IMG/VR virus record: IMGVR_UViG_3300002835_000026
Length of the DNA stretch: 64,000 nt
Origin: a virus
Direction: 5' to 3' (one strand)
Made by a program: the position numbers and the translations under genes. The notes under the pieces were generated by a model, which did no database searches, was not told the DNA's origin, and saw nothing but the letters and a program-made list of their open reading frames with translations. Shown piece after piece: positions 20,360 to 63,595 of this stretch (the stretch's first letter is position 1; the number at the start of each line of letters is the position of its first letter).

Positions 20360-21196
20360 TTAGTCTTTAAATAAGTTTATTAAATCGTTTAAATAATCGT
20401 TTGCTAAATCAGTACCATATAACACATTAAAACTAGGTTTATCTTTATAATAATTTAATGTTTTTTCTTTTGCGTTTTGTAATAATGGTAATAATTCGTT
20501 TAATTTTTGTTCTAATGTATCAAATCCTTCTAATCTAGATTTGATAAATATTTTTAATTCTGGTGTATCTATGTTTAAAGAATCAATATAAGCATCTACA
20601 TCTAATTGTGCTTCGTTTACATTCTCTTTCCACATTTGTTTAACTTCGATTCCTTTCGCCTGTTGATTCAGTTTTTTTTGATTAACAGGTTTGTAACCTA
20701 GTTTATAGTAATAGTTATTTGTTGTGCCTTTAGAATTAGTATTTTTTTTATAAGCTGCATCTGTACCTGCTTTTGTAGCTGTTTGTGGTCCTTCACCTGG
20801 ACTAAATGCCCCTGCTGATGCTCCACCTCCTGTACCTGACTCTTCTTCTAAATCAATATTTAAATTGTTAAATTTTTCTTGGTTATAATTATCTAAATAT
20901 GGTTTTAAATCTTGTTTCCAAACTGCGGTTTGTGAAAAAGCTATATTATCTGCTTGTCCATGCTCTCCTTGTGTAGCTTTATCTAAGTCTTGGATAGTAA
21001 TTTTACCAGTCTCCATAGCTTTTTTAAATGTTCTAAATTCATTAGATGGGCTATAGATTTCTAGTTTATTTTTTAATAATTCTTTACCACCAAAAAGCCA
21101 AATCCACTGAAGAGCTGTATCAAATTGTCCGTCAATACCTTTATGAATACTAACTTCTTTTAATGTTTGTTTAATGATACTTTTTAACTTATCCAT
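20360..21196 (-). CDS. Hypothetical head-cluster protein
   Basis: 278-aa ORF; N-terminal KLKSIIKQTLKE motif. Confidence 0.6.
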   Translation of the reverse strand: MDKLKSIIKQTLKEVSIHKGIDGQFDTALQWIWLFGGKELLKNKLEIYSPSNEFRTFKKAMETGKITIQDLDKATQGEHGQADNIAFSQTAVWKQDLKPYLDNYNQEKFNNLNIDLEEESGTGGGASAGAFSPGEGPQTATKAGTDAAYKKNTNSKGTTNNYYYKLGYKPVNQKKLNQQAKGIEVKQMWKENVNEAQLDVDAYIDSLNIDTPELKIFIKSRLEGFDTLEQKLNELLPLLQNAKEKTLNYYKDKPSFNVLYGTDLANDYLNDLINLFKD

Positions 21197-22043
21197 TTAC
21201 CTTATGTAATTCTTCTAGTAATTCATAATAATGAAGTAAATTAGTCATATCATCATTACTAATTTTATCATTTTTATCTAATGTAACTAAAATATTAGAC
21301 ACCTCATTAATTTTAATTTGAGTTGTCTTATCTTTAACTTTTTTATTTAATTTAGTTAAATTAGATTTAATTTCTGTTACTTTAGTATTGTAAAAATCTT
21401 TTAATTTAGATGGATTATCAACACTGTTGATAAATTCTTTTAATACTGATTTTTGTCCTTCATTTAAATTAGCATACTTAGAATTAAATTTTTCTAATAA
21501 CGCTCTATAAGTTAACATACGAATATCTTTATCGTATGACTTAAATTCTTCCATTAGTGTATCTTTAGCAACTGTTGTAAGTGGTGCTGAAGTTAAATGT
21601 TCTAATAGAATTAATTTATTTGAGATTACTTGGTTAGCTTCTGGTTGATTAATACCATCATACATTTCTAATAATGTATAAAACGCTGCTTGTGTTTTGT
21701 AGTTAGGAAGTTTGGTTTTAAAAAATTCATCAACGTCATAATTTGCTTTAATTTCTTTAATTAAATTATATTTTTGACGACGTAATGCTGATTTGTTTAA
21801 ATATTTAGCACTTTCTAATAAAGTACTGATAATAATATCGGCTTTGCCTTCACTTAATTTAATGTTGTTTAACAACGTTTCATATAACTTATACTCTTTT
21901 CCTAACTCTGTTTTTACAAAGTGTTTTTTTAGAATAGTTGCTGCTTTTGAGTCTACGCCTGACAATGTATCAGACGTAATTTGTCTAACTAAAAGTTCAA
22001 ATAAAATGCCAGTATTCTTGTATTTTGAATGTTTAACAATCAT
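21189..22043 (-). CDS. Helical hypothetical protein downstream of portal (possible prohead core component)
   Basis: 284-aa ORF preceded by the late-type motif. Confidence 0.6.
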   Translation of the reverse strand: MIVKHSKYKNTGILFELLVRQITSDTLSGVDSKAATILKKHFVKTELGKEYKLYETLLNNIKLSEGKADIIISTLLESAKYLNKSALRRQKYNLIKEIKANYDVDEFFKTKLPNYKTQAAFYTLLEMYDGINQPEANQVISNKLILLEHLTSAPLTTVAKDTLMEEFKSYDKDIRMLTYRALLEKFNSKYANLNEGQKSVLKEFINSVDNPSKLKDFYNTKVTEIKSNLTKLNKKVKDKTTQIKINEVSNILVTLDKNDKISNDDMTNLLHYYELLEELHKVNG

Positions 22044-22058
22044 TCCTAAAGTGTTTTA

Positions 22059-22068
22059 TTATAAATAT
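22059..22068 (-). promoter_or_regulatory. Putative late promoter ATATTTATAA
   Basis: Recurrent motif upstream of start 22043. Confidence 0.6.
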
Positions 22069-22078
22069 ATAAGGATTA

Positions 22079-23956
22079 TTATTCTCTAATTTGGGATTCA
22101 TCTAATAGCGAATCTCCTGGTTTTTCTTGACTAAGACATAATTTTTTGTCAACTTGTTCAAACAAACGTTTATTTCTTGCGAAAGCTGACTTAGCATTTT
22201 CTAAAGCAAACGGTTTGGTTGTTGATTTACCATATCCTGGTTGGTCATCTGATTTCATATCTTTAACACCTAATCTATCACGACCTAACGCGCTATCTTG
22301 TGTGTTAATATTAGATACTTTTTCTTTTGGACGACCTAATTGTGTATCATTATTATATCCTGGTGGTAATTCACCTTCTGGTCTGCCGTTTTTACTATAT
22401 AAACTGGCTAAATCATGTGGTGTACCATAAGATTTACCTGTTTCTACTGGATCATTACCTTCTTCTTTAATTTGTGCGATTCTAAATTCACGTTTTGCAT
22501 CTTCAATCATCATATCTCTATATTCATCATATGAATCTTCAGAGAATCTGAATACATTGTCATAAACCCAATCAGTAGGCATTAATTTAGTTTCAATGAT
22601 GTTTTTAGCTAAATCAACTTTTTCCTTCATTAACATAATACGTTCTTGATCATATATAATAGACGGTGTGGTTAACGATAACTCGAAGTTAGTTAATTCA
22701 TCATTAGTATAACCTTGAACATATAAATGTACTAATGCGATTTTATATAATTCAGACAATGTAATACGTTGAATACGATCAATTGTACGAGCAAAACGAA
22801 TATCTTCCGCTGCTAATGTTGCTTTACCTTGTAAATCTTTATCATAACCTAAAAATGCTTTAGGTACCTTTAATGCTGCAAATAATTTATCTCTTAAATA
22901 TGCAACGTCTTGAATACCATCGTAATCTAAACCTTTAGTATTTTCAATACGTGTTGCTTGGTCATTACCTCTTACTGGAATATAAAAATCTTCTAGTAAG
23001 TTTTGCATGTTATATTTTACGTTATATTCACCTGTCTTTTGATCCATTAATGGAGTACGTTTCATTGAACTAATAGTTTTCTGCATAAATGCTTCAACTT
23101 CATTAGGCGGGATAGAACCAACATTAATAAAGAAAGTACGTTTTTCTGGTGAACGAACTACACGATGGATTAACATTGCATCTTCCATTAACGCGTATTG
23201 TTTATATAAACGACGAGCTGGTTCTAGATAAGATCTACCATATGGTAAATAATTAACATCTGTAATTAATCTAAAGTGAGCAACCTCATAGTTTTCAAAG
23301 AAAATACCTGGTTCGTTTTGACGGCCTAAATTAGGTGTATTGTAATAACCATCACCTGATAAAAATCCTTCAGGTTTAAATTGGAAACGAACAGACGCTG
23401 GTTTGTCTTTATCATAATTTTCTTGTCTTTCAATATGATACGCTGTGTATGGAATAACATTATATACACCAAATTTTTCAGCAATTTCTAATCTTAAGAA
23501 AAAATCACCATATTTACACATTTGACGAATCCAAGACCATAAATTAAATTCGATATTTAATACATCATAAAATAAGTTATATAAAATTCTTTGAATGTTT
23601 TCATCTGATGAACGAATAGATAATACTTCACCCATATCATCTTTTAATGTAGACTCATCAGCTACAATATCAAGTGCAGAACCAACAATTGCATCCTGAT
23701 CCATGATATCATAGTCTGAATATAATTGGGTACGTAAGTATTGATAATTTAAATTTAATTGAGCTCCATAAAGTGAAGATGCATTAGTTGAATAGATTCT
23801 ATTATATCTATCCATTAATGAGTTAGTAGCGATATCACCTGTTTGTTGTATGGTGTTAACGTCCATTACTTTTAATTGATCACCACCCTGATTTCTCATC
23901 ACTACATCAGTAGAGAACAGTCGTTGTAATCGTGAAAATAAGCCTTTGTCTGCCAT
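22079..23956 (-). CDS. gp20: Portal vertex protein, T4 gp20-like
   Basis: GRSYLEPARR, LMEDAMLIHRVVRSPEKRTFFINVG, LEDFYIPVRG, KLFAALKVP. Confidence 0.93.
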   Translation of the reverse strand: MADKGLFSRLQRLFSTDVVMRNQGGDQLKVMDVNTIQQTGDIATNSLMDRYNRIYSTNASSLYGAQLNLNYQYLRTQLYSDYDIMDQDAIVGSALDIVADESTLKDDMGEVLSIRSSDENIQRILYNLFYDVLNIEFNLWSWIRQMCKYGDFFLRLEIAEKFGVYNVIPYTAYHIERQENYDKDKPASVRFQFKPEGFLSGDGYYNTPNLGRQNEPGIFFENYEVAHFRLITDVNYLPYGRSYLEPARRLYKQYALMEDAMLIHRVVRSPEKRTFFINVGSIPPNEVEAFMQKTISSMKRTPLMDQKTGEYNVKYNMQNLLEDFYIPVRGNDQATRIENTKGLDYDGIQDVAYLRDKLFAALKVPKAFLGYDKDLQGKATLAAEDIRFARTIDRIQRITLSELYKIALVHLYVQGYTNDELTNFELSLTTPSIIYDQERIMLMKEKVDLAKNIIETKLMPTDWVYDNVFRFSEDSYDEYRDMMIEDAKREFRIAQIKEEGNDPVETGKSYGTPHDLASLYSKNGRPEGELPPGYNNDTQLGRPKEKVSNINTQDSALGRDRLGVKDMKSDDQPGYGKSTTKPFALENAKSAFARNKRLFEQVDKKLCLSQEKPGDSLLDESQIRE

Positions 23957-23974
23957 TTTATTATATGTTATTAA

Positions 23975-23984
23975 TTATAAATAT
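23975..23984 (-). promoter_or_regulatory. Putative late promoter ATATTTATAA
   Basis: Recurrent motif upstream of the portal gene. Confidence 0.6.
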
Positions 23985-25561
23985 TATCGTATTAACCAAC
24001 TAATGTCTTCATTTCCGCCCATACCATTTTCTATACTATATGGGTTAGGAACACTAGAACCATACGCTCCTGTAAATCCTGTTCTGTTAACAGACATATT
24101 ACTTAATGTTGCTCTAGACATTTCTAGGTTTTGTGATTTAAATCTTAATGATGTATCTCTTAAATACATTCCAATTGCAAAACTCATAATTAAGTCATCA
24201 TTGTATCCTGATTGTGCTTCAGGACGACCATTTTTCCAAATGAATACTTTCATTTCTTCTAGTAAACGTTTAGATTGAATAACAACACTTTTATCACCTA
24301 TATACTCTCTAAATTTATTAACTATTAAAGGACGAGTTTTCAGTGATGTTGTAAAACCAGGTACTAATTTTGAATTATCCATATATTGGTCAAAATAAGC
24401 ATCAGCATTATTACTAGCATCACTTTTAGGTGAATAATATAAATTCTTATATCCACGTTCTTGAATTGCATCTAATGCTGACCAACCAATATTAGCATTT
24501 TCTACTACTAATAAAGCTTGGTTATATTCTGTAGCTAAACCAACTAAGAAAAATCCAAATTCTTTAGGTGGTAATTGACCTTTATATTCTGCTACCTGTG
24601 TATTAGATTCAACATGTATAACATGGGCTGCGGAAAAATCCTTGCCATCACCCCGTGCTACATCGGCTATAACCATATATGATTGAGTATAGTCCGCCGG
24701 TTCCCATATCCATAAGTTACGGTCAACTCCGCGGCGTTCTAGCGGTTCTTTTATTGTGGTTTGAGATATAAATTCAATCCATTCTGAATAGAATACTGTA
24801 TCACCTGAAGTACTAAAATCACAATCACACTCTTGAGATGCTAATCTAGGATCACCTAATAATTCGTCTTGTTTTTTTCTCCATGCTTCATTTCTTTCAG
24901 GATGGACAAACCAAGGTAATTTAATAGGTAAGAAATCGTTTTGTTGGGCTTCAGCTTTAACCCATGTTTGATGAAACCAATTACCTGTACCATAAGGAGT
25001 AGATAATACAATAGCACCACCACCCGTAGCTAAGGTTTGTTGAGCAGAAGCCCAAATTGTATCAATACCTTCAATAAATGCTGCCTCGTCAATTAATAGT
25101 AAAGATACAGCTTCAGATCTACCAGCATCACCAGCAGCTGATACTGCTTTAATTTGAGATCCGTTATTTAATCGTAATGTAAGTTTATTATTTTCGTCTG
25201 CTGTTACTTTTAACCATGATGGTAAATTTTCATACATGAATTTTACCTTAGTTACCATGTTTTTAGCAGTTTCTTGCTTTGTAGCAATACAAAGTACGTT
25301 TTTATCTTTATGGAATAACATTAACCATAAAGAATAACCAGCTGATAGTGTTGAAATACCTAATTGTCTTGATTTAAGTACTATACTGTATGGATTGTCT
25401 TTCCATAAATTTAATACTTTATCTTGAAATGGATATAAATTAAACATGATTCTTCCTCTTTGAGGATGTTGAATATAACAGTATTTTTTCATAAAGTGGC
25501 TTGGGTCACTCGCACACTTTACATATTCCTGTCTTATAACTTCACGTAAGTCTTGACTCAT
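23984..25561 (-). CDS. terL: Terminase large subunit
   Basis: LYPFQ, KSRQLGIST Walker A, LLIDEAAF Walker B, STPYG, ADVARGDGKDFS, NDDLIMS nuclease motif. Confidence 0.96.
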   Translation of the reverse strand: MSQDLREVIRQEYVKCASDPSHFMKKYCYIQHPQRGRIMFNLYPFQDKVLNLWKDNPYSIVLKSRQLGISTLSAGYSLWLMLFHKDKNVLCIATKQETAKNMVTKVKFMYENLPSWLKVTADENNKLTLRLNNGSQIKAVSAAGDAGRSEAVSLLLIDEAAFIEGIDTIWASAQQTLATGGGAIVLSTPYGTGNWFHQTWVKAEAQQNDFLPIKLPWFVHPERNEAWRKKQDELLGDPRLASQECDCDFSTSGDTVFYSEWIEFISQTTIKEPLERRGVDRNLWIWEPADYTQSYMVIADVARGDGKDFSAAHVIHVESNTQVAEYKGQLPPKEFGFFLVGLATEYNQALLVVENANIGWSALDAIQERGYKNLYYSPKSDASNNADAYFDQYMDNSKLVPGFTTSLKTRPLIVNKFREYIGDKSVVIQSKRLLEEMKVFIWKNGRPEAQSGYNDDLIMSFAIGMYLRDTSLRFKSQNLEMSRATLSNMSVNRTGFTGAYGSSVPNPYSIENGMGGNEDISWLIR

Positions 25562-25947: not shown

Positions 25948-26221
25948 TGTATTTAGTTTTATATAAATCGGCTTTATATTTTAAACCCGATAATTTTGTT
26001 TTATCTTCTGTTACTTGTTTTTTATAAACAGCAGTAACTGAATCTAATTGGGCAATTTTAATTTTAGTAGAGTCAATATTTGCCTGTAATGAATCTATTT
26101 TATTATTTAATGTTTCGTTTTCTTTAGCCAAACGGAAATTAGGATTAATGTTAAGAATATTTACAATTAATAACACTAATCCTATGTATCCTAAAAATTT
26201 AAGAATTTCTTTATACAACAT
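25874..26221 (-). CDS. N-terminal TM plus coiled-coil protein; i-spanin-like
   Basis: FLGYIGLVLLIVNIL TM followed by heptad repeats; start probably MLYKE at 26221. Confidence 0.5.
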   Translation of the reverse strand: MLYKEILKFLGYIGLVLLIVNILNINPNFRLAKENETLNNKIDSLQANIDSTKIKIAQLDSVTAVYKKQVTEDKTKLSGLKYKADLYKTKYNEEHNRINNLSNDALVSEFTNAFN

Positions 26222-27257
26222 CAAATTCAAATTTATCCTTTAATGCTTCTAATTCTTTCTTTTGTGCTGTTTTTTCTTTTAATTTAGCAACAATATTTGC
26301 TTTTTCTTCGCCTTCAGCTTTTTTATAGTCGTTAGCTAATGTCTTCATTTCTTTTTCTACTTGAATTAAACCTTTTAATACTTTATCTAATTTAGAAGTA
26401 CGTTTAGTTAATTTATCAGCAGCTTTAGATGCTTGTTTGTCAATATCTGTTTCGTCTGGCGCTGAGTCTTCGTCTCCTGCTTTATAGTAGTCATCAGCTT
26501 CTTCTTCGCCTGTGTTAATATCTTTTTCCACTGCTTTAACTGCTTTTTCTATTTTTTCTTTAGATGGTTTAACAACCGCTGCTTTTGGAGCGGCTCCACC
26601 CATTGATACTACACCTTTATCTTTTAACATACCCATTAATTCTCTGAATTTAGGATTGTTAATACTAGCTGTATCATTTAAACCAAATTCTTTAGCTACA
26701 TCAGCAACTGACATTTCACCTTTTTCTAAAAGATATTCTAATGCTTTTTTAACATTACCTTTAGCTTTTTCAATTAATGAAGCTAATTCATCTTTCATTT
26801 CTTTATTTAAAATGTAAGATACTTTAGCACGAGCCATTTCATTTAAATCATTTTCATTATTAGATAATGACATCATTAAATCTTTTAAAAGATATTTAAA
26901 ATCTTTATCTTGTAACCATCCTCTTGTATGAGCATAATAATCATAAACATCTTTAACTGAGCTTAATTTTTTAATATCCTTAATAAATTCATCTGGATTT
27001 GGAGATACTTCTGATTCAAACTCATATACTGTTTGTTGTAATGGAGTTAAATCATTAACTTCTTCAGCTACGGCTATGGATTGTCCTGATTTTTTAGCTT
27101 GATCAATTGCTGCTTTAACAGTAGCAGTTGATGTTTTTTCTGATTTAGCTATTGTGTTAATATCATCAGTTGTTGTTTGTGGACCTACCATAGTAGTTTC
27201 ACTTAATGCACCTATGATTTCTTCACGTATAAAAGATTTAAATTCTTTGATTTTCAT
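26211..27257 (-). CDS. Hypothetical modular protein with an HTH-like segment; probable capsid cargo
   Basis: MKIKEFKSFIREEI N-terminus; GEMSVADVAKEFG HTH-like; late motif at 27270-27279. Confidence 0.6.
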   Translation of the reverse strand: MKIKEFKSFIREEIIGALSETTMVGPQTTTDDINTIAKSEKTSTATVKAAIDQAKKSGQSIAVAEEVNDLTPLQQTVYEFESEVSPNPDEFIKDIKKLSSVKDVYDYYAHTRGWLQDKDFKYLLKDLMMSLSNNENDLNEMARAKVSYILNKEMKDELASLIEKAKGNVKKALEYLLEKGEMSVADVAKEFGLNDTASINNPKFRELMGMLKDKGVVSMGGAAPKAAVVKPSKEKIEKAVKAVEKDINTGEEEADDYYKAGDEDSAPDETDIDKQASKAADKLTKRTSKLDKVLKGLIQVEKEMKTLANDYKKAEGEEKANIVAKLKEKTAQKKELEALKDKFEFDVV

Positions 27258-27278
27258 GTTATATTTTTCTGATAAATA

Positions 27279-27809: not shown

Positions 27810-27816
27810 ATATTAT

Positions 27817-27845
27817 AATGTATGTAAAGTCTCTAATGAGACCAA
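27817..27845 (-). promoter_or_regulatory. Putative early/middle promoter TTGGTC-N17-TACATT
   Basis: Same spacing and consensus as three other copies. Confidence 0.55.
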
Positions 27846-31483: not shown

Positions 31484-32596
31484 TTATATTCCTGCTAGTT
31501 TTTGCATTCTAATGAATTCTAAAGATAAAGATTCATTTATTGCTGATGGTGATTTTATATTTTTTACAATAGAACTTATAGACTCCCAACTTTCTTTAAT
31601 TAATTCAATTATAGCATATGCTAATAATATATAATGACCAAATTCCCATATCTTTATAAGATCATCTGCGTAAGGAATATAAGCAGAATATTCTTTTATT
31701 TTTTCTTCTACCCAACTCCAAGAAGAGTTAAAAACTCCTGAAATTTCCATAACAGCTGATATAAGTTCTGGAATAACATGAAATTCCATAGCTTTAGGGC
31801 CTCCTATTTTTTCAATAAATTTAGATATTAGTGTTAATATTTTAGAACTTGCCCAAGAACCAGTTATACTTACAATACCCATTACTGGATTTAATGCTAC
31901 TTTTATTATGTTTCCTAACCATGTTTTCCATTTACTATTTTCTTCTGCTTCTAATAAAACATTAGGATTATTTAAATGTTCAGTAGTTTGTTTATTAAAT
32001 ATATTTTCTTGAATATTTTTTCCTGCTTCTTCTGCTTTTGTAATAACTGGTTCAACTACTTTGTCGCCAATAGCATCAATCATAGTACTTGGGTCTTCTA
32101 TTTTACCCTTAAAAAAACTATCTATTTTAAGTATGTGATTTATTTCAGCTATTAAATCATCTCTATCTGGGCCATTTAGTGCTTTTTTAAAGGCTTCTGT
32201 TATTTTATTTTTATTTTTTTCTATTAATCCTTTAATTGCTGTTTTTCCTTTTGAAATAAGATCAGTAAAAGCTTTTTTAATTTGAGCCCAAACTTTTACA
32301 ACATAATTTTTAATTCCACCAAAAGTAGATTTAACTTTTTCCCATCCTGATCTAAACCAATCTGCTATACCTTCGTTTACTTGAGATTCAAATAATACTA
32401 TATTTTTTCTATGAAAACTAGAATGTGATTCAAGATATAAAGATAATGCTTGTTTTTCACCACTAGTAAAATAATCATTATTTGGTATAGATTTAATAAA
32501 TTCTTCTTGAACTATTTTTATAGTCTTAGGTATTAAAGAAAATGAAATTTCCTTTTTTACTTCTTTAATTAATTGTTTTAATTCTGATTGTTTCAC
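31484..32596 (-). CDS. Helical protein with hydrophobic segments and both terminal cargo motifs
   Basis: GTG start MKQSELKQLIKE; ends EFIRMQKLAGI. Confidence 0.65.
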   Translation of the reverse strand: MKQSELKQLIKEVKKEISFSLIPKTIKIVQEEFIKSIPNNDYFTSGEKQALSLYLESHSSFHRKNIVLFESQVNEGIADWFRSGWEKVKSTFGGIKNYVVKVWAQIKKAFTDLISKGKTAIKGLIEKNKNKITEAFKKALNGPDRDDLIAEINHILKIDSFFKGKIEDPSTMIDAIGDKVVEPVITKAEEAGKNIQENIFNKQTTEHLNNPNVLLEAEENSKWKTWLGNIIKVALNPVMGIVSITGSWASSKILTLISKFIEKIGGPKAMEFHVIPELISAVMEISGVFNSSWSWVEEKIKEYSAYIPYADDLIKIWEFGHYILLAYAIIELIKESWESISSIVKNIKSPSAINESLSLEFIRMQKLAGI

Positions 32597-32857: not shown

Positions 32858-33388
32858 TTATATATTTTTATTTATTAGTATATATAATTTATATTCATCA
32901 TCTCCCCAACTGCCACCTAAAGATTCAACTTTAGTCACATATGGTAATTGTTTCATCATTTTTTCAGCTAAACTTTGATATATTCTATCTCGTTTACTAT
33001 TTCTACTTGTTTCTTCATCTGCCTCATTAGCAGGATGGCATTCTAATGTAAATTCACCATAGCCTTTAAAGTCAATTTCAATAAATTTTTTTAGAATATC
33101 AACAACAGTATTTAATACTGCTATACCGTCTCCTGATTCAGTTTGAGCCCATGGATTTCCTTTATTTAAACCAAAACTAACATCTAATATTAAATCATCA
33201 TTAGTTATATCTTCAGGTTTAGCTTTAGAATTCACTAAAGATATCCAGTAATCTTCATATGAATTATTTATAGAAACAAAAATATTGTTTCCTTTTTTAT
33301 TTATAAAATTATAACGTACACCATCACTTGTTTTTTTAGGACCTGTGAATGAGTAACTTTCTGTTAATAAATCAATGAGTTTGATCAT
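32858..33388 (-). CDS. Hypothetical protein with CTS-like N-terminus MIKLIDLLTE
   Basis: 176-aa ORF. Confidence 0.65.
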   Translation of the reverse strand: MIKLIDLLTESYSFTGPKKTSDGVRYNFINKKGNNIFVSINNSYEDYWISLVNSKAKPEDITNDDLILDVSFGLNKGNPWAQTESGDGIAVLNTVVDILKKFIEIDFKGYGEFTLECHPANEADEETSRNSKRDRIYQSLAEKMMKQLPYVTKVESLGGSWGDDEYKLYILINKNI

Positions 33389-34009: not shown

Positions 34010-34327
34010 TTATTTTTCTCTAATTAACAATTCGCCTAATACTTCTAAACGACCAACTTCACGTTGGAATTCATTTTGAGTCATATCTAATGATATTTTT
34101 TTATAGGTTTCATCGAATTCTTTTTTAGCTGCTTCTTTATCAAATTTACCTTTTATAGCTTTTTTATAATAAGATGGTTTCACATTAAAGTGAGTATATG
34201 TTAATAAAGCATCGCCGCCTTTTTCTTTAGCATTAGCTATAATTTTTTCAGCACCTGCTAAACGATTTTTAGCAAATGTTTCAAAACTTTCTTTAGCTTC
34301 AGTTAATAATTGAATAAGATTAATCAT
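34010..34327 (-). CDS. Hypothetical protein with CTS-like N-terminus MINLIQLLTE
   Basis: 105-aa ORF. Confidence 0.65.
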   Translation of the reverse strand: MINLIQLLTEAKESFETFAKNRLAGAEKIIANAKEKGGDALLTYTHFNVKPSYYKKAIKGKFDKEAAKKEFDETYKKISLDMTQNEFQREVGRLEVLGELLIREK

Positions 34328-34767
34328 TTTTTTATTTTTTTAAATGGAGCATATCCTGAACCATATGGAGCTGATTTGCCAGATTGAGGATCTGGAGTTT
34401 CTGATATAGTCCAAGTTTTAGCATCATGTGCTTTTTCTTTCAATTTAAATGTAACAACACCACGAATTGATTTAATATCTTTTTCTACTTTAGTTACAAT
34501 ATTAGTATTGTCATTTAATCCTTTAGGGAATGGTGATGGATCAATTTTAATATCTAAATAAGCATATTCATATTGTGATGATGGATTACCTGACTGATAT
34601 TCTCTGTTATTAACAATAGTTACACCTAATACAGCTCTAACATCAGATAAAATGTATTTCATTTTAGCAACTTTAGGGTTGATAACAATAACACCACCAA
34701 TGGCTAATACCTTTTTTGATGAAGCATATTCTTCTTTAATTGCTTTTTTAATTTCTGATAGTTTCAT
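34324..34767 (-). CDS. Hypothetical protein (start probably MKLSEIKKAIKEE)
   Basis: ORF track 34324..34785; the ATG at 34767 carries the shared N-terminal motif. Confidence 0.6.
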   Translation of the reverse strand: MKLSEIKKAIKEEYASSKKVLAIGGVIVINPKVAKMKYILSDVRAVLGVTIVNNREYQSGNPSSQYEYAYLDIKIDPSPFPKGLNDNTNIVTKVEKDIKSIRGVVTFKLKEKAHDAKTWTISETPDPQSGKSAPYGSGYAPFKKIKK

Positions 34768-34778: not shown

Positions 34779-35426
34779 TTACCAAAAACCGGTAAAAGTA
34801 GTTTTAAATCCTAATAAGTTTGCGTAACGAGGTAATCTACATGACCAGTAACGTGCTGTTGTTTTATCTTTAGCTTGTGGACAATTCATTCTATCTGAAA
34901 ATGCTTTACGTGCTTTAGGATTGTTTAGTTTTGCTCTTAAAGCTCCACCAGCCATACCAAATGATATTTTTTTAACTTTATCACCGTCTTTAACATAAAC
35001 ATAGAATTTTTTAGATCCACCACGTTTTGGTTTACCTAATGCTACTTCTTTACCTTGGTATTTAGCTTCAGTTATTATTTCCATTAATGGTAAATCTAAA
35101 GGAACAAATTCGCCTTCATATTTTGCCCACCTGCCAATATCAGTACGTTCAAATATTTTTTTATCTGTACCTTGTAATTCAATAATACCTTTAGACCATA
35201 ACATTCTCGCTTCAGTCAATAATTTTTGATGAGCGAAACTGCCTGGGCGATATATATTCTCGGTAAGCTGTATTTTACTGTCTATATGGTAACGCATCGC
35301 CTCAGATATCGCCATATTGTACTGCTTAGACTCTACGAGTAAAGGCGGTGTATCGCAGTGTTTGCATGAATCGGTTACTTTGTAATTTTGCAAAGTTTCT
35401 GAGATAAGTTGTTTTAATTTATTCAT
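34779..35426 (-). CDS. Two-module hypothetical protein with a basic Cys-containing C-terminal domain
   Basis: MNKLKQLISE; ITE|AKY junction; KKFYVYVK...ARKAFSDRMNC...ARYWSC; late motif at 35429-35438. Confidence 0.7.
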   Translation of the reverse strand: MNKLKQLISETLQNYKVTDSCKHCDTPPLLVESKQYNMAISEAMRYHIDSKIQLTENIYRPGSFAHQKLLTEARMLWSKGIIELQGTDKKIFERTDIGRWAKYEGEFVPLDLPLMEIITEAKYQGKEVALGKPKRGGSKKFYVYVKDGDKVKKISFGMAGGALRAKLNNPKARKAFSDRMNCPQAKDKTTARYWSCRLPRYANLLGFKTTFTGFW

Positions 35427-35437
35427 GATTATAAATA

Positions 35438-36463
35438 TTAAATTGCTTTAGCAGTTGAAAATTGCTTTTTAGGATAAAATCCAAATCTTGCGTTTTTAAT
35501 GTCTTGTTGACTCATATTATTTCTAAAAGTGACAGCCATATGTGGTATATATTCTCCAGTTAATTGTTGTGGATATATAAAATAAGCAGGACTAGTTATT
35601 TCAAAATACTCACCTTTATCAATTAATGTTATATTTCCAAAGCATATTAATTCTACTTTATCAATTCCAAAATCTTCACCTAAACCGTAAGATGCTTTTA
35701 ATTTTAAATCATCAGATTTAATATCTCTTTTATAACTGTCTTTATTTTTTAGTTCTCCACCTGATGTTTGCTTAACAGCATCTATAAAGCTTTTAACCTC
35801 ATCATTATTACTTAATTTACTCATTCCTGATAATTGTTGAGATTGAATATCTTTATGTTGGATATATAGATTTTCATCACCCTTAAATATAAAATCAGCT
35901 TGTTTATTACCTGGTATTTTTTCTACTGTAGTAATATTTTTGTATACTTTTTCTCCTACTTTTATATTAATACTTCCACCTTTTTCTTCAATAGCTTTAT
36001 TTAAATTACTTAATTGATAATCTTCAATATCAGCACCAATAGCTTCCATACCTAATACTAAAATTATATCTTTTCCTTCAATAGGAAATTGGAATGCAAA
36101 ATTTCTGCTACTAGGATTTTGGTTATTAGGATTACCTAATTTTGTTGGAGGAAGAATTTTAATATCTTTAGGATCTATATCAAATATATTAGATATAATA
36201 TCTATAAATTCATTATTAGTAATATTCCCTATATTTTTTATACGTTTAGGTCTACTATGAGGACCTAATTTTCCTTTAGCTTCATCTGATGATAAAATAG
36301 TTCTTATAACTTGGGGTGTTGTTATTTTATCTTCTTTTAAACTAATACCTAAATTATTTAGTAATGATTCCATTAATAAAATATCCTGTTCATTTTTCAT
36401 GTCAGGATATCCTTTAGGAAATTTATAAGAATATTGTTTTAAAAACTTATCTAATGGATCCAT
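35438..36463 (-). CDS. Putative PD-(D/E)xK-like nuclease with a separate N-terminal module
   Basis: IED...KQADFIF...YIQHK catalytic-like spacing; N-terminal KFPKGYPD...SLKE segment. Confidence 0.5.
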   Translation of the reverse strand: MDPLDKFLKQYSYKFPKGYPDMKNEQDILLMESLLNNLGISLKEDKITTPQVIRTILSSDEAKGKLGPHSRPKRIKNIGNITNNEFIDIISNIFDIDPKDIKILPPTKLGNPNNQNPSSRNFAFQFPIEGKDIILVLGMEAIGADIEDYQLSNLNKAIEEKGGSINIKVGEKVYKNITTVEKIPGNKQADFIFKGDENLYIQHKDIQSQQLSGMSKLSNNDEVKSFIDAVKQTSGGELKNKDSYKRDIKSDDLKLKASYGLGEDFGIDKVELICFGNITLIDKGEYFEITSPAYFIYPQQLTGEYIPHMAVTFRNNMSQQDIKNARFGFYPKKQFSTAKAI

Positions 36464-36753
36464 TATTTTACTTCAATTTGCTTCAAATTTGAAAATATTT
36501 GAGTTAATAAATTGTCGTCATTTGTTTTAATCATAGCAATCATAGTATCAGCCAATATTTTATTAGCCGCTACATTCAAAGGTTTATTACTTTTTACTAA
36601 ATTAATAGTAGTAGTAAATTTAGAAGGATCAAAACCTTCAACACCTAATTTTTTAAATAAATCTGTTTTGATTTGACCTTGAAGTTTTGGTTCTTCAGTA
36701 GTGACTTCTAAAATTTGTTCTCTTATTAATTTTTTAAGTTCTGATTTTTTCAT
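36463..36753 (-). CDS. Hypothetical protein, N-terminus MKKSELKKLIREQILE
   Basis: 96-aa ORF. Confidence 0.65.
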   Translation of the reverse strand: MKKSELKKLIREQILEVTTEEPKLQGQIKTDLFKKLGVEGFDPSKFTTTINLVKSNKPLNVAANKILADTMIAMIKTNDDNLLTQIFSNLKQIEVK

Positions 36754-38653: not shown

Positions 38654-40776
38654 TATCTTAAAATTCTTTTTAACATTGGAAACATATTTTCATTAATTTG
38701 ATTTAATTTACCTTTAGCTTTTTTAGCTTCAGCCATATCAGGATAACTATCATCATAAACATCCATGCTGTCATCATAATTATCATCATTATCATCACCT
38801 GGATTATCTCCAGCATCATATTGATTTAAGAAGTCTTCCAATTTCATTCCTGGATTTTTCTGTATTGCTGTAAACATATCATTTATTATGTCTTCATTGT
38901 CCATATTTGATAAAATATCATATATAGCATCAGCACTATCATCATTTATAGCTTCATTAATTGGAGCTGTATCTAAGATATGAGCTTTAGTAAAATAAGT
39001 AATTGTATTAGCAATTTGAGTAATTAATTTTTCATCACCTAATGCTTTTGCTTCAGCATATGCTGCTTGTAAGTTAGATTGAATACCTGATACTTCAGTT
39101 GTTTTACCAGCCATCATATCTGATTCAGGAGCATCAACTACTTCAGTATCGTCTACTGTTATGTCTTCAACTTCTTTATCTTTTTTAGCTTCACTAAGAC
39201 TGTCATTAGCTAACTTACCCATGTCCACTAAATTTTCTAATTCTTCACGTTCATCATTATTAAGATCTGTGCCATCTTTAAATTTAGCAACAGAAATATA
39301 AACGTCAGAATAATCATTATAAGATCCACCTTCTACTTCAATTGAATTAACATCAACTTCTTTTCCGTTTAACATTACTTTGTTTGATTCTGCTTCTTTT
39401 AAGGTAGTACCATCAGAAATTCCTTTAATACTTGAATGTAACATTGCTAAGAAATATTTCATTTCTATTATTCTATCTTCCATCTCTCTATCTGTGAATT
39501 GACCAAACATGACAAGATTTTTAACTATATCTAAATTCCTAAAAGCAGTTTCTATAGCAGTAACAGTTTTTCTTTCAACATCTTTAGGCTTAGTAAAGTC
39601 CCAATTATCTCCAATAGTAGATATAGCTTCATCTAAAGGATTTTGCAACATATCTTCTAATTTTTCTGCTTCTTCTTCTGATAAACCAGGATAAGAGTTC
39701 ATTAATTCTTCAGCATCATATTCACGCATCTCATCTATAAAAAGATCACCTTTATTTTTAAAATATTTAAATAAAAACTCAGCATCATAGTTGTTGTCTT
39801 CTAATTCTACTTCTTCTGCTTCAGCTAATGGATCATACATGTTATTTAAAGCACCTGGTTCATCAATATCTTCTGTAGAATCTTCATTTAATTCAGCTAA
39901 AATCATTTCTTTGATTTTTGATTTTAGTTTAGATTTAGTCATCTTTTCTTTTTCGATTTCTTCACCTTTTTTAACTCCAGCACCATATATATTTTCTTCA
40001 CCTTTTTTACCTAAACGTTTAGCTGATTTAGCTCTATCATAATCAGTATCACCTTCGCTCATTTGTGTATTATTTAATTTAGATAAATCGTTTGGATCAA
40101 TAACAACTATTAAATTATCAATTTCTTGACCATATCCTATTGGACTATCACCTACTTCATTTTTTACTCCAATAGAAGTTAAATAATTACTCATTTCATC
40201 TGCTAATTTATCTACTGTATTATTTAAAAATGATTTTTCTTTATCTTTTAAATAATCTCTATCACCAAAATCCATAGAATTTTCTATTTCTTTAAAATTA
40301 TCACTGTTAGTAACAACTAAATAAAGTTCATTATCTACTTTATAGTATTCAACATTTTTAAATTTACCAAAACTTACTTTTGAATCTTTGTAAGCACCTT
40401 CACCTTCATTCATATCATCTAAGAAAAAGTCTTGACCTGGGAATAAAGTAGCTAAATCAGTTAATTTTAAATTAACTTGATAAATAGATGGAGCCATTTC
40501 TTGGTATACTTCTGAATTATATTTGTCTGCTATAGTTTGGATCATAATGTCATCATTTGATGCAATCATGACTTTGTTTTTTGCTGGGTATACCCAGATG
40601 TCTAGTGTTTCATCAGCATTTTTATTTGGAGGTACCATGTGGTAGATATTATCATCTCCCATGATTCTTTTCCATGATGAAAAATTTAACATGTTAGTAT
40701 TAGATCCTTGATTTTCTTTAATAATACCCGCAAGTTTTTGCATGCGAGCTAATTGTTCATTTAATGTTGGTTTCAT
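38653..40776 (-). CDS. Acidic modular polyprotein with N-terminal RMQKLAGI
   Basis: 707 aa; MKPTLNEQLARMQKLAGIIKE; late motif at 40795-40804. Confidence 0.7.
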   Translation of the reverse strand: MKPTLNEQLARMQKLAGIIKENQGSNTNMLNFSSWKRIMGDDNIYHMVPPNKNADETLDIWVYPAKNKVMIASNDDIMIQTIADKYNSEVYQEMAPSIYQVNLKLTDLATLFPGQDFFLDDMNEGEGAYKDSKVSFGKFKNVEYYKVDNELYLVVTNSDNFKEIENSMDFGDRDYLKDKEKSFLNNTVDKLADEMSNYLTSIGVKNEVGDSPIGYGQEIDNLIVVIDPNDLSKLNNTQMSEGDTDYDRAKSAKRLGKKGEENIYGAGVKKGEEIEKEKMTKSKLKSKIKEMILAELNEDSTEDIDEPGALNNMYDPLAEAEEVELEDNNYDAEFLFKYFKNKGDLFIDEMREYDAEELMNSYPGLSEEEAEKLEDMLQNPLDEAISTIGDNWDFTKPKDVERKTVTAIETAFRNLDIVKNLVMFGQFTDREMEDRIIEMKYFLAMLHSSIKGISDGTTLKEAESNKVMLNGKEVDVNSIEVEGGSYNDYSDVYISVAKFKDGTDLNNDEREELENLVDMGKLANDSLSEAKKDKEVEDITVDDTEVVDAPESDMMAGKTTEVSGIQSNLQAAYAEAKALGDEKLITQIANTITYFTKAHILDTAPINEAINDDSADAIYDILSNMDNEDIINDMFTAIQKNPGMKLEDFLNQYDAGDNPGDDNDDNYDDSMDVYDDSYPDMAEAKKAKGKLNQINENMFPMLKRILR

Positions 40777-40807
40777 GTTTTATATAGTTATATATTATAA
40801 ATATGTG

Positions 40808-41080
40808 TTATTTGTTAAACTTAACTTTTGCTTTTTCTGTATTGGATACAAATTGTTTACCTTTTTTACTACCCTCAACTTTTTTGCGTGTTGTTGCGGC
40901 ACGTTCTGCTTTAGTTAAGCGTTTTGCTTTAGCTAATGGTAAGCAACGTTGTGTTGCTTTACCTTTAGGCATTGTACCACAGTCACCTGCGATGTTACCT
41001 TGAGTATCTATACGGACCCATTTTTCTTTTTTAAACCAGTCACGTAGTGATTCTTGTACTAGACGTTTTAAATTGTCCAT
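40808..41080 (-). CDS. Small basic Cys-containing hypothetical protein
   Basis: LRDWFKKEKWVRI...CG...CLP. Confidence 0.7.
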   Translation of the reverse strand: MDNLKRLVQESLRDWFKKEKWVRIDTQGNIAGDCGTMPKGKATQRCLPLAKAKRLTKAERAATTRKKVEGSKKGKQFVSNTEKAKVKFNK

Positions 41081-42812: not shown

Positions 42813-43454
42813 TTACTTTATTAGATTTTTTATTTGTTCTCTAATGACTTCTTGTAATTCTTTTTTAGTCATTTTAACTTTCATATACTCAGCTTTAGGA
42901 TCTTTAGGTAATTCTTTAATTTTACCTGCTTTAAACTGTTGCATAAAATATAATTTTGCTTCTTGATCTAATTTATCTGCTGATTCATCAACTGCTTCTT
43001 TATCTACTATTGAATAATTAATTTTAGCATTTTTCATTACTACATCAATAATTTTTTTAGTTAAGTCTTTAGCTGGATTTCCTGATTTAGGGAAAACAAT
43101 AGTATCATCTTTAACTTTATATTTTAATAATGTAGGTTTAGAAGTATGTGATTTAACAAAATCATCAATTGATGTTTTAGTTTTAACAGGAAAAGGAAAA
43201 CCTTGATCTCTTTCCATTTTCTTGCGTTTAGCAGGAATAACAGGACCAAAGTGATCTTCTATAGCTTTTTGTATAGATGATTTATTACGCATGTTAGAAA
43301 CATACATTCCATAGTTATCTAATGTTTCTAAAGCCTTAACTGTATCTTCTACAGAAACACTATTAGGAGTAACTACAATATCGTAATTTACTTGTTCACG
43401 ATTTGAAGGTGTAGTTTCTGCTTCTTCTTCTCTTAATTTATATTTGTAAGCCAT
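42813..43454 (-). CDS. Hypothetical protein with C-terminal ELQEVIREQI motif
   Basis: 213-aa ORF. Confidence 0.65.
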   Translation of the reverse strand: MAYKYKLREEEAETTPSNREQVNYDIVVTPNSVSVEDTVKALETLDNYGMYVSNMRNKSSIQKAIEDHFGPVIPAKRKKMERDQGFPFPVKTKTSIDDFVKSHTSKPTLLKYKVKDDTIVFPKSGNPAKDLTKKIIDVVMKNAKINYSIVDKEAVDESADKLDQEAKLYFMQQFKAGKIKELPKDPKAEYMKVKMTKKELQEVIREQIKNLIK

Positions 43455-47254: not shown

Positions 47255-48216
47255 TATGCTGCTTTATATTTATTTAAATTAGAATCATCAGGTAAAAATT
47301 TACCTTTAAGACCTAAGCGACTTTGATTAGTAATCCAATATTCTTGAAGATCTAATGGAATATCAGCTCTAGTTGAGTCTAATATTCTTAAATATATATC
47401 TAATACTTGATTTAATTTATCTTTAGGTAGTTTTTTCTTTAAAACATCCATTAACTCAAAATAATCATTTAATACATCTTGAGATAAATTAAGTTTAAAT
47501 CCTTGGTTTAATACATCTAATGCTTCTTGAGGATTAGTCGCTACTATATCTCCTGTTTCTTTATCCTTAACACCAGTACCATGACTAAAAGTTTTATTTA
47601 ATGCTTGGAACATAGCTACCATTAATTGGGTTCTATGTAAACCTTTTACATTATCTTTATAGGTATTTGAATAGTAACTAAAATTTAGCCAATCTAAATT
47701 ACCTACATTAATATCTATTTGTACTGATTTATCATTAAGTATTTCTCCTTTTTCATTGTATTGAGGAAAATTACAAAATATTGAGCCATTACCTGCTGCT
47801 TTTAAATCAGTGTCTATATATTCTGATTTCTTTTCAAGATTAGTAGCTATTAATTCTAACATAGCTCTTAATTTGCTTTGAGTTTCTGATGCTGAACGTG
47901 AACGTTTTCTAATTTTTTCATATAGAGTGTCAAATTCAGCTTTATCAATATTCCAATTAGATAATAATGGATTACCATCTTTATCCATAAATTGGTCAAC
48001 ACTCATACCTAAATCAATATCACCAGATTCATCTTTTTTACCAACTGAACCTAAAGTATTAAAGTTAAATTTTACTTTTGGGTATACTTTATTTAATTCA
48101 GCAGTGAAATTTTTAAGAGTGGGTTGGATGTATTCTTTTTTGATACTAGAGGTGGTGCCAAATACGTTGCCACCTTCTAAAGTTATTGATTTTAAAAGCT
48201 CAATTAAAGAAATCAT
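47254..48216 (-). CDS. Pol-beta superfamily nucleotidyltransferase
   Basis: LGSVGKKDESGDIDLG and VQIDIN; late motif at 48229-48238. Confidence 0.75.
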   Translation of the reverse strand: MISLIELLKSITLEGGNVFGTTSSIKKEYIQPTLKNFTAELNKVYPKVKFNFNTLGSVGKKDESGDIDLGMSVDQFMDKDGNPLLSNWNIDKAEFDTLYEKIRKRSRSASETQSKLRAMLELIATNLEKKSEYIDTDLKAAGNGSIFCNFPQYNEKGEILNDKSVQIDINVGNLDWLNFSYYSNTYKDNVKGLHRTQLMVAMFQALNKTFSHGTGVKDKETGDIVATNPQEALDVLNQGFKLNLSQDVLNDYFELMDVLKKKLPKDKLNQVLDIYLRILDSTRADIPLDLQEYWITNQSRLGLKGKFLPDDSNLNKYKAA

Positions 48217-53167: not shown

Positions 53168-53206
53168 TGGTTATTATTTTTGTTATAAATATATACAAAT
53201 TTTATT

Positions 53207-60965: not shown

Positions 60966-60975
60966 TATTTAATTA

Positions 60976-62832
60976 TTATAAAGGTACTACTTTACCTTGA
61001 ATGTCTGTGTTTAAGTATTTTACTTCAAATATAGATGGATCTAAACTAGGATAAATAACATTATTTGCTGTTGCTCCTGTAATATCGTAAGCATAAGGTG
61101 AATATCCTAAATTAGTACCTACTTTATTTACTATATCCACAGTTTTTACTGTTTGAACTCCTTCAATTCTATCTAAAAGTATATATAAATTACGTAATAA
61201 GATAGGTTGATTAATTTGCCATTTATCAATTGTGAAATAATCTTGTAATGCTAATATACAAGCTGTTAATACTTGATTATTATTATAGTTAGGTAAAATT
61301 ATAATTTCAAAATTTACTCCAATATTAATAATAAATCCATCTTTAATATTAATAGAATCATTAACCATTCTATATTGTGATAGATAAGTAATTACATTTT
61401 GTTTTAAAGCTAATGAGCCTGTGGTTAATTGACCTTGAGCATTATTACTTAAAACATATAAATCTAATATTGAATTAGATTCACCAGCTGATATAGTTTG
61501 TGCTTTAGTAGGTTCAATATATGCTTTTGCTACTGTACCATATTTAGCCGGCATAGCTAATGTTCTAACTAAATAATCATCTTGAGTAACATTACGTTGT
61601 TGTGAAGCAAAGTTAGCAGATGAATTTTGTCTAATTTCTTCTTCTGTATCTCCACTACCTCCTCCACTTGCTGCTTCTGGATTTGATACAGCTAATGAAT
61701 TAAATATTGTATTAGCTGTAGTAGAATTTAGATTACTATTTAAGAATTGAACACTGCCATTAAACTGAGTTAAGTCATTAGACGGCACATTCGCTGAAAC
61801 TCCTCCTCCAGTTAAGTAACTAAAGGTTAATTGAGTAGTAGACGGAGCTATACCATAGGTACGAGTAAAAGTAAAGTTATTAGGTGAGTAAGCTACTGTT
61901 AATCTATCTTTTTCAAATGGTAAACCTAAACCAACATTGTCTGGATTAGGAATAATTTCTTCATCTTTATCTGTTGCGGTTCCAGCACCAAATTGTATTT
62001 GTAATGAGCCTGAATCAATAAAACGAGTAACAAATCTTCTTTGAACTTGTTCTAATTGTAATAAATAAGGTGTATCTCCTTGATATTGTGATAAATAAGG
62101 ATCGTTAGTGTTAGTATTTCTTATTGATTTATAAATTGTATCTTGAGCTAAATAATCAACTTCATACCATGGATTACTATCAGTATCAACACAATCTAAT
62201 ATACCAATAATATTTTCATCATTTAATTCAACAGTTGCAAATTGAACTGGTTCTCCAAATGTATAAGTTTTAGACTTAAGAGTAGCAGAAATAGATTTAC
62301 GAGTTTTCTTTAATAAAAATGATTGAGGAGTTGTTCCTGTTATTTGATATATAGTTACTTCAGTTGGATCACTTGAACTTGAAAATGAAAAATCAACTGG
62401 ATCTCCAACTAAAAATGAAATGTTTGAATTAAGATTAGATGTTACTCTAGAATTAGGTTCAATATATAAAGCATAATTAAAATCAGGTATATAAGATGAA
62501 CCTGAAGATATAGCAGGTACTTGTTGATAAAAATTTATATCAGCTAATGCTACACCTGTTACATTTGGTTTATAACCAAACATATAAGCTAATTCATATA
62601 AATTATTTGTTTGACGAGCATATTGTAAAAATGTTTCTTGGAATTGATTATCTAAATAGAATGACAAAACATCACCTACATAAGCTGCCATTTCCATAAA
62701 CATCATACCTGGTGATGCTGGAGTAAAATCGTTATACGTAGTTGGAAAATACGTTTTAACGTAGTTTACTAAACTAGATCTTAACTCTGTAAAATCTTTA
62801 TTTAGGTACTTTATATCTTTAATTGTTGCCAT
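60976..62832 (-). CDS. gp6: Baseplate wedge protein, T4 gp6 / baseplate J-like
   Basis: KDFTELR, YNDF...GMMFMEMAAYVGDVLSFY, GYKP, YLTGGG...N, ASGG...EEIR...QQRNVTQDDY. Confidence 0.85.
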   Translation of the reverse strand: MATIKDIKYLNKDFTELRSSLVNYVKTYFPTTYNDFTPASPGMMFMEMAAYVGDVLSFYLDNQFQETFLQYARQTNNLYELAYMFGYKPNVTGVALADINFYQQVPAISSGSSYIPDFNYALYIEPNSRVTSNLNSNISFLVGDPVDFSFSSSSDPTEVTIYQITGTTPQSFLLKKTRKSISATLKSKTYTFGEPVQFATVELNDENIIGILDCVDTDSNPWYEVDYLAQDTIYKSIRNTNTNDPYLSQYQGDTPYLLQLEQVQRRFVTRFIDSGSLQIQFGAGTATDKDEEIIPNPDNVGLGLPFEKDRLTVAYSPNNFTFTRTYGIAPSTTQLTFSYLTGGGVSANVPSNDLTQFNGSVQFLNSNLNSTTANTIFNSLAVSNPEAASGGGSGDTEEEIRQNSSANFASQQRNVTQDDYLVRTLAMPAKYGTVAKAYIEPTKAQTISAGESNSILDLYVLSNNAQGQLTTGSLALKQNVITYLSQYRMVNDSINIKDGFIINIGVNFEIIILPNYNNNQVLTACILALQDYFTIDKWQINQPILLRNLYILLDRIEGVQTVKTVDIVNKVGTNLGYSPYAYDITGATANNVIYPSLDPSIFEVKYLNTDIQGKVVPL

Positions 62833-63239
62833 TAATTGAATGCTATATCTAATTGATCACTTATATTAGTGTCTGCTATTGTATATTTTAATGTTACTAC
62901 TACTTGGTTTATATCTGGATATTCTATAACATCTAATCTAGCTACTATAACATTAGGAAAATATAAACCTATTTGGGTTTGAATATCTTGTTTTAAAAAA
63001 TCAGTATTATTAGCTGTTATTTGTTCAAATATAAAATTTCTTAAATTACCACCAAATAATGGATTTAAATAACGTTCTGGTTGGTTGGTTAAGAAAAAAT
63101 TTATTAAATTATTCTTAATAGCATCTTTAGTTAAATAAGTAGACTGAAATACTCCAGGATTACTAAAATCTAAACTAACACCAATAGCCGTACCAGTTTT
63201 AGTATCAATAGGAAATATTTTTTGTGCACCAAATGCCAT
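62832..63239 (-). CDS. gp25: Baseplate protein, T4 gp25-like
   Basis: IKNNLINFFLTNQPERYLNPLFGGNL...FE. Confidence 0.85.
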   Translation of the reverse strand: MAFGAQKIFPIDTKTGTAIGVSLDFSNPGVFQSTYLTKDAIKNNLINFFLTNQPERYLNPLFGGNLRNFIFEQITANNTDFLKQDIQTQIGLYFPNVIVARLDVIEYPDINQVVVTLKYTIADTNISDQLDIAFN

Positions 63240-63241
63240 TA

Positions 63242-63595
63242 TTATTTATTTAATAAACCCATAATTTGATCTAATCCAACATTACCATCAGGTAAAGATC
63301 CATTAATTGCATCTCCTCCTCTAGGTATAAATGTATTAGCAGTAAGAGCTTCTGTTGTCATTGTTCTACCAGATGCCATATCACCTAAAATATTAGCCAT
63401 AACTGCTTTTTTAGCATTTGGATCTAATGGTTTAGAACTAATTGGTTTAACTGATTCTGTAACAGTTCCATAACCACCTTGACCTGCTGAGGCTTTAGGT
63501 GCTTTAACCGCTTCTAAAAGTATTTCTTTCATTTCTTCAACGAATACTTCACGAACGGCTTCTTTAATGATTTTTTTAAATTCTTCTGATTTCAT
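63242..63595 (-). CDS. Hypothetical protein, N-terminus MKSEEFKKIIKEAVRE
   Basis: 117-aa ORF; late motif at 63600-63609. Confidence 0.65.
   Translation of the reverse strand: MKSEEFKKIIKEAVREVFVEEMKEILLEAVKAPKASAGQGGYGTVTESVKPISSKPLDPNAKKAVMANILGDMASGRTMTTEALTANTFIPRGGDAINGSLPDGNVGLDQIMGLLNK

Follow-up and report, generated by a model that had tools for sequence, protein, structure and literature searches.

Here we describe a short N-terminal peptide, hereafter called the tag, that heads eight mutually unrelated proteins (best pairwise E-value 0.28) encoded in a 64,000-nucleotide (nt) stretch of DNA from an uncultured T4-like water phage (IMGVR_UViG_3300002835_000026; the window). The tag is real and occurs far beyond chance, is selected as a peptide, and is both modular and swappable. 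It comes in a long form of about 20 residues, M-K-K-S-E-L-K-x-x-I-K-E-x-I-x-x-x-L-S/T-E, with hydrophobic residues at positions 6, 9, 10, 14, and 18, and in a short form of 10 residues, M-D/N-x-L-K-x-L-I-x-E, with hydrophobic residues at positions 4, 7, and 8; the net charge is +1 to +2. Tentatively, we read it as a T4-style capsid-targeting propeptide that would be removed by a gp21-like protease, the single most probable explanation in our view but far from an assured one.

The window has a G+C content of 28–30%, and its minus strand carries nearly every gene. The large terminases of the window and of Flavobacterium phage vB_FspM_immuto (hereafter immuto) share 59% identity, and in reversed orientation the window is syntenic with 81.9–135 kb of the immuto genome, a stretch that takes in the baseplate wedge, a variable block, and the head module in this order. 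Since portal proteins about 70% identical to the window's are encoded by more than 598 viral contigs, the lineage, which consists of distant T4-like, environmental Bacteroidota phages, is abundant. Our comparison sample comprised 80 portal-bearing loci and two complete or nearly complete genomes, namely G001 (171,684 bp, with terminal repeats, complete) and G002 (149 kb). Early and late genes were compared on immuto, G001, and G002 instead of on the window's own genome, of which an exact-match scan of viral contigs yielded only fragments of 4–6 kb; an early-promoter regular expression built on four window genes failed to carry over to these relatives, and firm temporal classes were not assignable.

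A preliminary description of the window had quoted eleven peptides of this kind, all of which were found on the minus strand at the places given for them. Eight are true N-termini of open reading frames (ORFs) whose products have unrelated bodies, and three are internal or C-terminal; searches of PHROGs and Pfam returned no function for any of the eight carriers. The consensus written down in that description fits only three of the eleven peptides exactly, but a relaxed core pattern is clearly enriched at N-termini, as it matches 8 of 61 protein N-termini versus 2 of approximately 20,000 internal positions in the window. When each protein's own first 20 residues were shuffled, the mean number of matches dropped to 0.03 (maximum 2). 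The word amphipathic, on the other hand, received modest support, with a hydrophobic moment clearly above that of shuffled peptides in only two or three of the eight.

Such a modest moment is what one might see if the peptides had no common function, that is, if Lys/Glu/Leu/Ile-rich helices arose readily in a 28% G+C genome, each for the sake of its own fold or oligomerization. Ordinary structural helices can indeed mimic the pattern. The N-terminus of the large terminase (25520..25561, minus strand) fits a loose version of it and was rejected as a carrier, since the tag profile gives it no more than about 4 bits and its counterpart in an alignment with T4 gp17 is an internal helix starting at residue 104; it is part of the fold. 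T4 gp16 starts with a short helix too. We nevertheless consider this explanation improbable: N-terminal shuffles that keep the composition yield no profile matches of at least 10 bits, the early genes of the relatives share the same base composition yet give no matches outside the variable block and head module, a profile based on a single family picks up others that are in register from the first residue, and the tag is optional and exchangeable among orthologues.

The profile evidence is the most direct. In what follows, proteins are designated by the first coordinate of their gene. A profile made from the first 22 residues of the 26211-27257 family, in which the long-form tag (27198..27257, minus strand) comprises residues 1–20 of a 348-residue protein, matches the N-termini of non-homologous families, always aligned from residue 1. 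Among these are 36463 (22 bits), 31484, 63242, three immuto genes, and several metagenomic genes. One iteration of this profile gave 55 N-terminal matches of at least 10 bits in 1754 proteins next to six internal ones, whereas fully shuffled and N-terminally shuffled controls gave none at that threshold. N-terminal matches of at least 8 bits are spread over about 17 unrelated body families in the related loci, and the three internal or C-terminal copies in the window each score approximately 10 bits against the tag profile.

The 26211 family itself, which has 44 members in the related loci (28 of them aligned to assess conservation), demonstrates what is being conserved: only M1, K2, I10, I14, and L18 are invariant or nearly so, in other words the tag itself. 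The invariant I10, I14, and L18 are encoded variably, by ATT, ATC, and ATA and by all six Leu codons, and Arg 3 by CGT or CGC. Because the residues are invariant while the synonymous codons vary, selection acts on the peptide and not on the RNA. This bears on a translational explanation, according to which near-leaderless late mRNAs need an A-rich, unstructured 5' coding region that only incidentally encodes a peptide. The codons of the tag, mostly AAA, GAA, TTA, and ATT, would suit such a need, and the element TATTTATAA stands 3–5 nt before the ATG of several tagged and many other small late genes. Yet the amino acids are kept through synonymous changes, G+C-rich Arg codons are tolerated, many tagged genes lie within operons without TATTTATAA, and orthologues preserve the copies away from the N-terminus as well, so that we regard a purely translational role as very improbable.

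The tagged genes are also remarkably confined in the genome. In G001, G002, and immuto taken together, 11 of the 12 profile matches fall in the region bounded by the baseplate-wedge operon on one side and the large terminase on the other, which contains 115 of the 699 ORFs, and the twelfth is a gene adjoining the protease (Fisher P = 1.6e-8). The approximately 580 other ORFs of these three relatives (replication, nucleotide-metabolism, tail, and other genes) did not match the tag profile. Early proteins thus do not carry the motif as commonly as late ones, since every tagged gene is located either in the late variable block or in the head module. Immuto, a cultured relative (host Flavobacterium sp. 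LMO8), has three to four of them; the candidates are 81481-81900, 102250-102825, 102836-103315, and 113144-113902 of MW353177. The location also speaks to a proposal analogous to ribosomally synthesized and post-translationally modified peptides (RiPPs), in which a modifying enzyme would recognize the tag as its leader. The relatives have one radical-SAM gene apiece, located in the early region and fitting QueE of a deazaguanine cluster; there is no radical-SAM gene near the tagged genes of the relatives, a radical-SAM maturase was rejected accordingly, and a RiPP-like leader strikes us as hardly credible.

Next to being widespread, the tag is modular. Orthologues swap it for other leader types or do without a leader altogether. 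The family of 43456, for example, starts with an M-K-K-L-I-D-L-L type leader in the window and with the tag type in G001 and G002. In the family of the 215-residue protein 34779-35426, which has a short-form tag at 35385..35426 (minus strand), the tag is optional: it is present in most orthologues, absent from one, and replaced by a different leader in immuto. Most orthologues in this family also have a Cys-rich linker (35330-35385 in the window) of the D-C-G-C-G-C-K-G or K-D-C-C type, positioned between the leader and a conserved A-P-I-L-N-E junction; this linker is a possible metal-binding or second cleavage site.

Exchange is equally visible in the head module, where the 278-residue protein 20360-21196 carries a short-form tag (21155..21196, minus strand). 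Its gene is located between portal and protease and occupies the gp67/gp68 position. The tag departs from the usual register here, with Gln at residue 10 and L-K-E at residues 12–14, and the leaders in the family vary: 37 members have K-Y-K-Y-K-L-K-E, three have the tag, and others occur besides. In a close relative (L011:2358-2882), the tag is joined straight to a Gly/Ser-rich linker. In the window protein, about 115 residues (20810-21154) lie between the leader and this linker, which suggests that the leader was kept while a domain was added behind it.

The remaining N-terminal carriers show the same combination of a recurrent leader and a private body. The long-form tag of the 117-residue protein 63242-63595 (63536..63595, minus strand; residues 1–20; 23.7 bits) is retained in its orthologues in G001 and immuto; the conserved helix extends to approximately residue 31, where it ends in I-L-L-E, and a search of the ESM Atlas with this protein returned viral hypothetical clusters only. 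In the 96-residue orphan 36463-36753, the long form covers residues 1–20 (36694..36753, minus strand) and reaches its 22 bits with the profile of another family; a helix is predicted for residues 3–19 with low confidence. Comparison of the first 40 residues of this orphan with 5.8 billion proteins yielded only four close homologues, all orthologues, which is uninformative as to the tag's wider spread. The 370-residue protein 31484-32596 has a long-form tag (32543..32596, minus strand) that scores 12.6 bits, rising to 22.3 bits after iteration; its GTG start overlaps the upstream stop, and its C-terminus is an R-M-Q-K-L-A-G-I peptide. A short form (41039..41080, minus strand), hydrophobic at residues 4, 7, and 8 and with Glu at residue 10, heads the basic, 90-residue protein 40808-41080. 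The weakest of the eight is the long-form tag of the 147-residue protein 34324-34767 (34729..34767, minus strand), whose real start is the ATG at 34767 and which scores only 4.8 bits.

Two of the three copies away from the N-terminus are found in proteins that have another leader or leader-like peptide as well. A C-terminal helix (42831..42872, minus strand; 10.5 bits) at residue 195 of 42813-43454 is kept in the G001 and G002 orthologues, and the N-terminus of this protein is a K-Y-K-type leader. The acidic, 707-residue protein 38653-40776 combines an N-terminal R-M-Q-K-L-A-G-I with an internal copy at residue 279 (39901..39942, minus strand) that ends in L-N-E and scores 10.4 bits, the orthologous copies scoring 21.5 and 13.5 bits. 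The third copy, located in the scaffold, is discussed below.

The preliminary description had further proposed that the tag ends in a protease site, and its end does indeed take the form of a protease-type motif: hydrophobic-x-Glu, as at the predicted maturation site of the capsid protein in this clade. The motif is I/V-x-E at residues 10–12, where residues 9–12 read L-I-K-E, L-I-R-E, F-I-R-E, and so on, and L-S/T-E at residues 18–20, such that the long form offers two candidate cut sites. In at least five unrelated families, similarity stops precisely at this L-S/T-E. In the 26211 family, no member lacks both Glu 12 and Glu 20, where 1.6 would be expected, a difference that is not significant. 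The T4 capsid protein is cut at L-T-E|A; the residues aligned to this site are L-V-M-E in the window, L-V-T-E in G001, and I-V-S-E in immuto. On a wider scale, 16 of the 38 proteins encoded in 16346-43851 have an N-terminal hydrophobic-hydrophobic-x-Glu versus 1 of 23 elsewhere in the window (P 0.001). Among these 16 are the protease, the scaffold, and the proteins that carry R-M-Q-K-L-A-G-I; the gene lying upstream of the protease is no exception. In the relatives, the corresponding figures are 24–26% of late-block N-termini versus 10–14% of early proteins.

A suitable enzyme is encoded in the head module, which follows the T4 order of terminase (23984-25561), portal (22079-23956), three or four small genes, protease, scaffold, and capsid protein. 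The prohead protease (18171..18776, minus strand; PHROG 207, E 5e-56) is 35% identical to T4 gp21 and retains the catalytic His and Ser motifs, G-E-L-x-H-P and G-V-S-S-R-G; its N-terminal V-L-I-E matches the L-L-I-E of its T4 counterpart. This protease is the presumed tag-removing enzyme. The L-V-M-E mentioned above belongs to the major capsid protein (14641..16317, minus strand). Between the protease and capsid genes lies the scaffold (16346..17434, minus strand), a positional analogue of gp22 with a weak local match to it, whose ends are conserved: L-L-K-E at the N-terminus and R-M-Q-K-I-A-G-I at the C-terminus. The protease and scaffold genes are separated by an inserted EndoG-like nuclease (17576-18199) whose N-terminus resembles a signal peptide; the nuclease shares 52% identity with the product of an early-region gene of immuto and is not found at this spot in G001, G002, or immuto.

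The proposed link between the tag and the scaffold is weak. From residue 166 (16898..16939, minus strand), the scaffold contains an acidic island with the same hydrophobic spacing as the tag, M-S/T-E-E/D-E/D-L-K-S-F-I-E-D-V-I-A-D-M-V, strongly conserved in at least 35 related scaffolds amid unalignable acidic sequence. Its net charge of −4 is opposite to that of the tags. The best non-scaffold matches of a profile of this island are N-terminal tags, but these matches reach at most 6.8 bits and are not significant, and the resemblance is suggestive only.

T4 offers the obvious model. Its capsid-targeting sequence (CTS) is the textbook case of an address by which a virus sends proteins to its own head for delivery along with the DNA; it has been turned into a tool for packaging foreign proteins and is known from a handful of T-even proteins. 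With Asp at the cut site, T4 loading still proceeds but cleavage is blocked. Short peptides that direct diverse cargo into an HK97-fold shell are also known from encapsulins (cargo-loading peptides) and from P22 (the C-terminal coat-binding helices of its scaffold), but as a rule these sit at the C-terminus, contact the shell itself, and escape proteolytic removal, unlike the tag as proposed here. The T4 sequences used for comparison were read from NC_000866. IPII and IPIII start with M-K-T-Y-Q-E-F-I-A-E and gp24 with M-A-K-I-N-E-L-L-R-E, and the short N-terminal pieces of gp67, gp68, gp22, gp21, and Alt end in L/I-x-E. In the literature, gp21 is reported to cut after L/I-x-E, residues 4 and 7 of the IPIII CTS to target the protein and residues 8 and 10 to direct its processing, and Alt to have propeptides at both ends (PMC9026906). 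The short-form tags of 34779 and 40808 are in the register of IPII, IPIII, and gp24 (positions 4, 7, and 8 with Glu 10), and the long form is shifted by two.

The likeness goes beyond this register. Like the CTS of IPI, IPII, IPIII, and Alt (PMC9026906, PMC3012670), the tag is an N-terminal peptide of 10–20 residues on unrelated, fast-evolving proteins, it ends in L/I-x-E, it is accompanied by a gp21-type protease and a gp22-like acidic scaffold, and its putative cargo genes are located in variable regions. There are differences as well. The resemblance is one of pattern, without recognizable sequence homology, and the tag is known here from sequence alone. Its main form is twice as long, basic, and equipped with two candidate cut sites, and there are at least eight carriers in a 64-kb window, several other leader classes, and internal or C-terminal copies. 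Moreover, the propeptides of T4 gp24, gp67, gp68, gp22, and gp21 are not a shared, portable sequence, whereas here one stereotyped sequence is found on many proteins. In phiKZ, 201phi2-1, and SPN3US, many head and ejection proteins are cut after Glu (S/A-x-E) by a gp21-related protease, with redundant propeptide sites (PMC9026906); such giant phages differ from our case in the P3 preference and in that no single shared leader sequence has been described for them. Our literature search found no such leader described outside the T-even phages. What is new here, then, is a different and longer leader on many unrelated orphans in a distant T4-like lineage.

Under the capsid-targeting reading, the tag helix would dock its carrier into the scaffolding core during prohead assembly, the gp21-like protease would then cut behind the Glu that closes each hydrophobic-x-Glu triplet (residues 10–12 and 18–20), and the mature carrier would be freed inside the head. 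Core docking, cleavage, and the presence of tagged proteins in the virion are what we infer; the arguments in favor are the enrichment, the selection at the peptide level, the point where similarity ends, the register, the protease, the location, the modularity, and the carrier within the head module.

A broader variant of this reading deserves mention, as the tag is not the only leader in the block. A second class, M-I/K-K/N/S-L-I-D/Q/E-L-L-T/R/K-E, which also ends in hydrophobic-x-Glu, is found on four more unrelated window proteins, with leaders at 33347-33388, 34286-34327, 43810-43851, and 48175-48216 (the N-termini of 32858-33388, 34010-34327, 43456-43851, and 47254-48216, respectively), and it also heads small G001 genes with starts at 1920, 98940, 109080, and 171476. 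A third, M-A/G-x-Y/F-K-Y-K-L/I-K/A-E, is the class closest to the CTS of T4 IPII and IPIII; examples are found at 43425-43454 in the window, in L013:3748-4671, and in G001 (16126-16686). It is thus conceivable, albeit doubtful, that we are looking at a multi-address cargo system in which several interchangeable leader classes (the basic helix, R-M-Q-K-L-A-G-I, the M-I-K-L-x-D-L-L type, and the K-Y-K-Y-K type), each ending in a protease motif, would load many fast-changing proteins, with the basic helix docking by charge pairing with the acidic island of the scaffold.

The alternative that we rank next after capsid targeting, although we think it unlikely, is that the helix docks onto some other partner that the late proteins share during assembly (packaging motor, portal, or chaperone, for instance) instead of serving as a capsid-loading signal that a protease removes. 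In that case, the 26211 family would be the small terminase, for which it is indeed a candidate. The gene evolves very fast yet remains syntenic, lying upstream of the large terminase at a distance of two to three genes. Its slot is fixed in 24 of 26 relatives, where a kinase-like gene comes first, followed by the tagged gene, one or two membrane ORFs, and the terminase. Its model predicts a tag helix (residues 3–19), disorder (residues 21–30), a winged helix, and a C-terminal helical hairpin; an acidic linker is predicted in the family as well, and short members lack the winged helix. No match to gp16-type small terminases (PF11053) was obtained in the three relatives, which would leave this role vacant for the 26211 family, and the 63242 family, at the head of the baseplate operon, also suits a partner other than the core.

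The same family provides counterarguments, however. It has no similarity to T4 gp16 (hhalign probability 0.05), its profile found no match in PHROGs or among PDB sequences, and a Foldseek search with its model found none either. The complete genome G001 has no 26211 family, yet bears the same tag on a different body nearby. A docking helix would also leave unexplained why similarity ends at hydrophobic-x-Glu and why every leader class in the block ends that way.

Several observations nonetheless weigh against capsid targeting and keep our confidence in it limited. The best-populated tagged family, 26211, which is nearly universal and in a fixed slot, may be a small terminase and not cargo, and if so, the tag is not only a capsid address. 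The 63242-63595 gene is the first of the baseplate-wedge operon, and its family heads that operon and not the head operon. Hydrophobic-x-Glu is weak evidence when taken alone because it is common in Lys/Glu/Ile/Leu-rich helices, the match between scaffold island and tags is weak (at most 6.8 bits), and the composition behind the tag is not significantly that of a flexible linker (0.49 versus 0.45, P 0.13). Furthermore, our literature search found no virion proteome for this phage, immuto, or Mel-JY01.

If capsid targeting were true, T4 would give too modest a picture of protein co-injection, which would be a much larger and more modular component of phage biology; for dozens of orphan genes, a role as injected effectors or as parts of the core could then be tested, and new packaging tags would become available.

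Two recurrent features near the tagged genes remain to be described. The element TATTTATAA lies 5 nt upstream of 63242-63595 and 3 nt upstream of 34779-35426; it precedes several tagged genes but also the portal and tail genes and many small late genes. It is 15-fold enriched just upstream of ORFs, either 3–5 nt or 11–23 nt before the ATG, with window sites at 63600-63608, 35429-35437, 40795-40803, 23975-23983, 22059-22067, 53183-53191, and 13679-13687, and it is found at 37 gene starts in G001. Should it be a late −10 element, its short spacing would imply mRNAs that are leaderless or nearly so. Finally, another N-terminal piece, F-D/N-x-K/H-K-F/W-L-x-E-N-K-L-T, recurs on unrelated small proteins of the relatives (G001 166885, 75131, 119611, and 78166; G002 20171), often directly behind TATTTATA.

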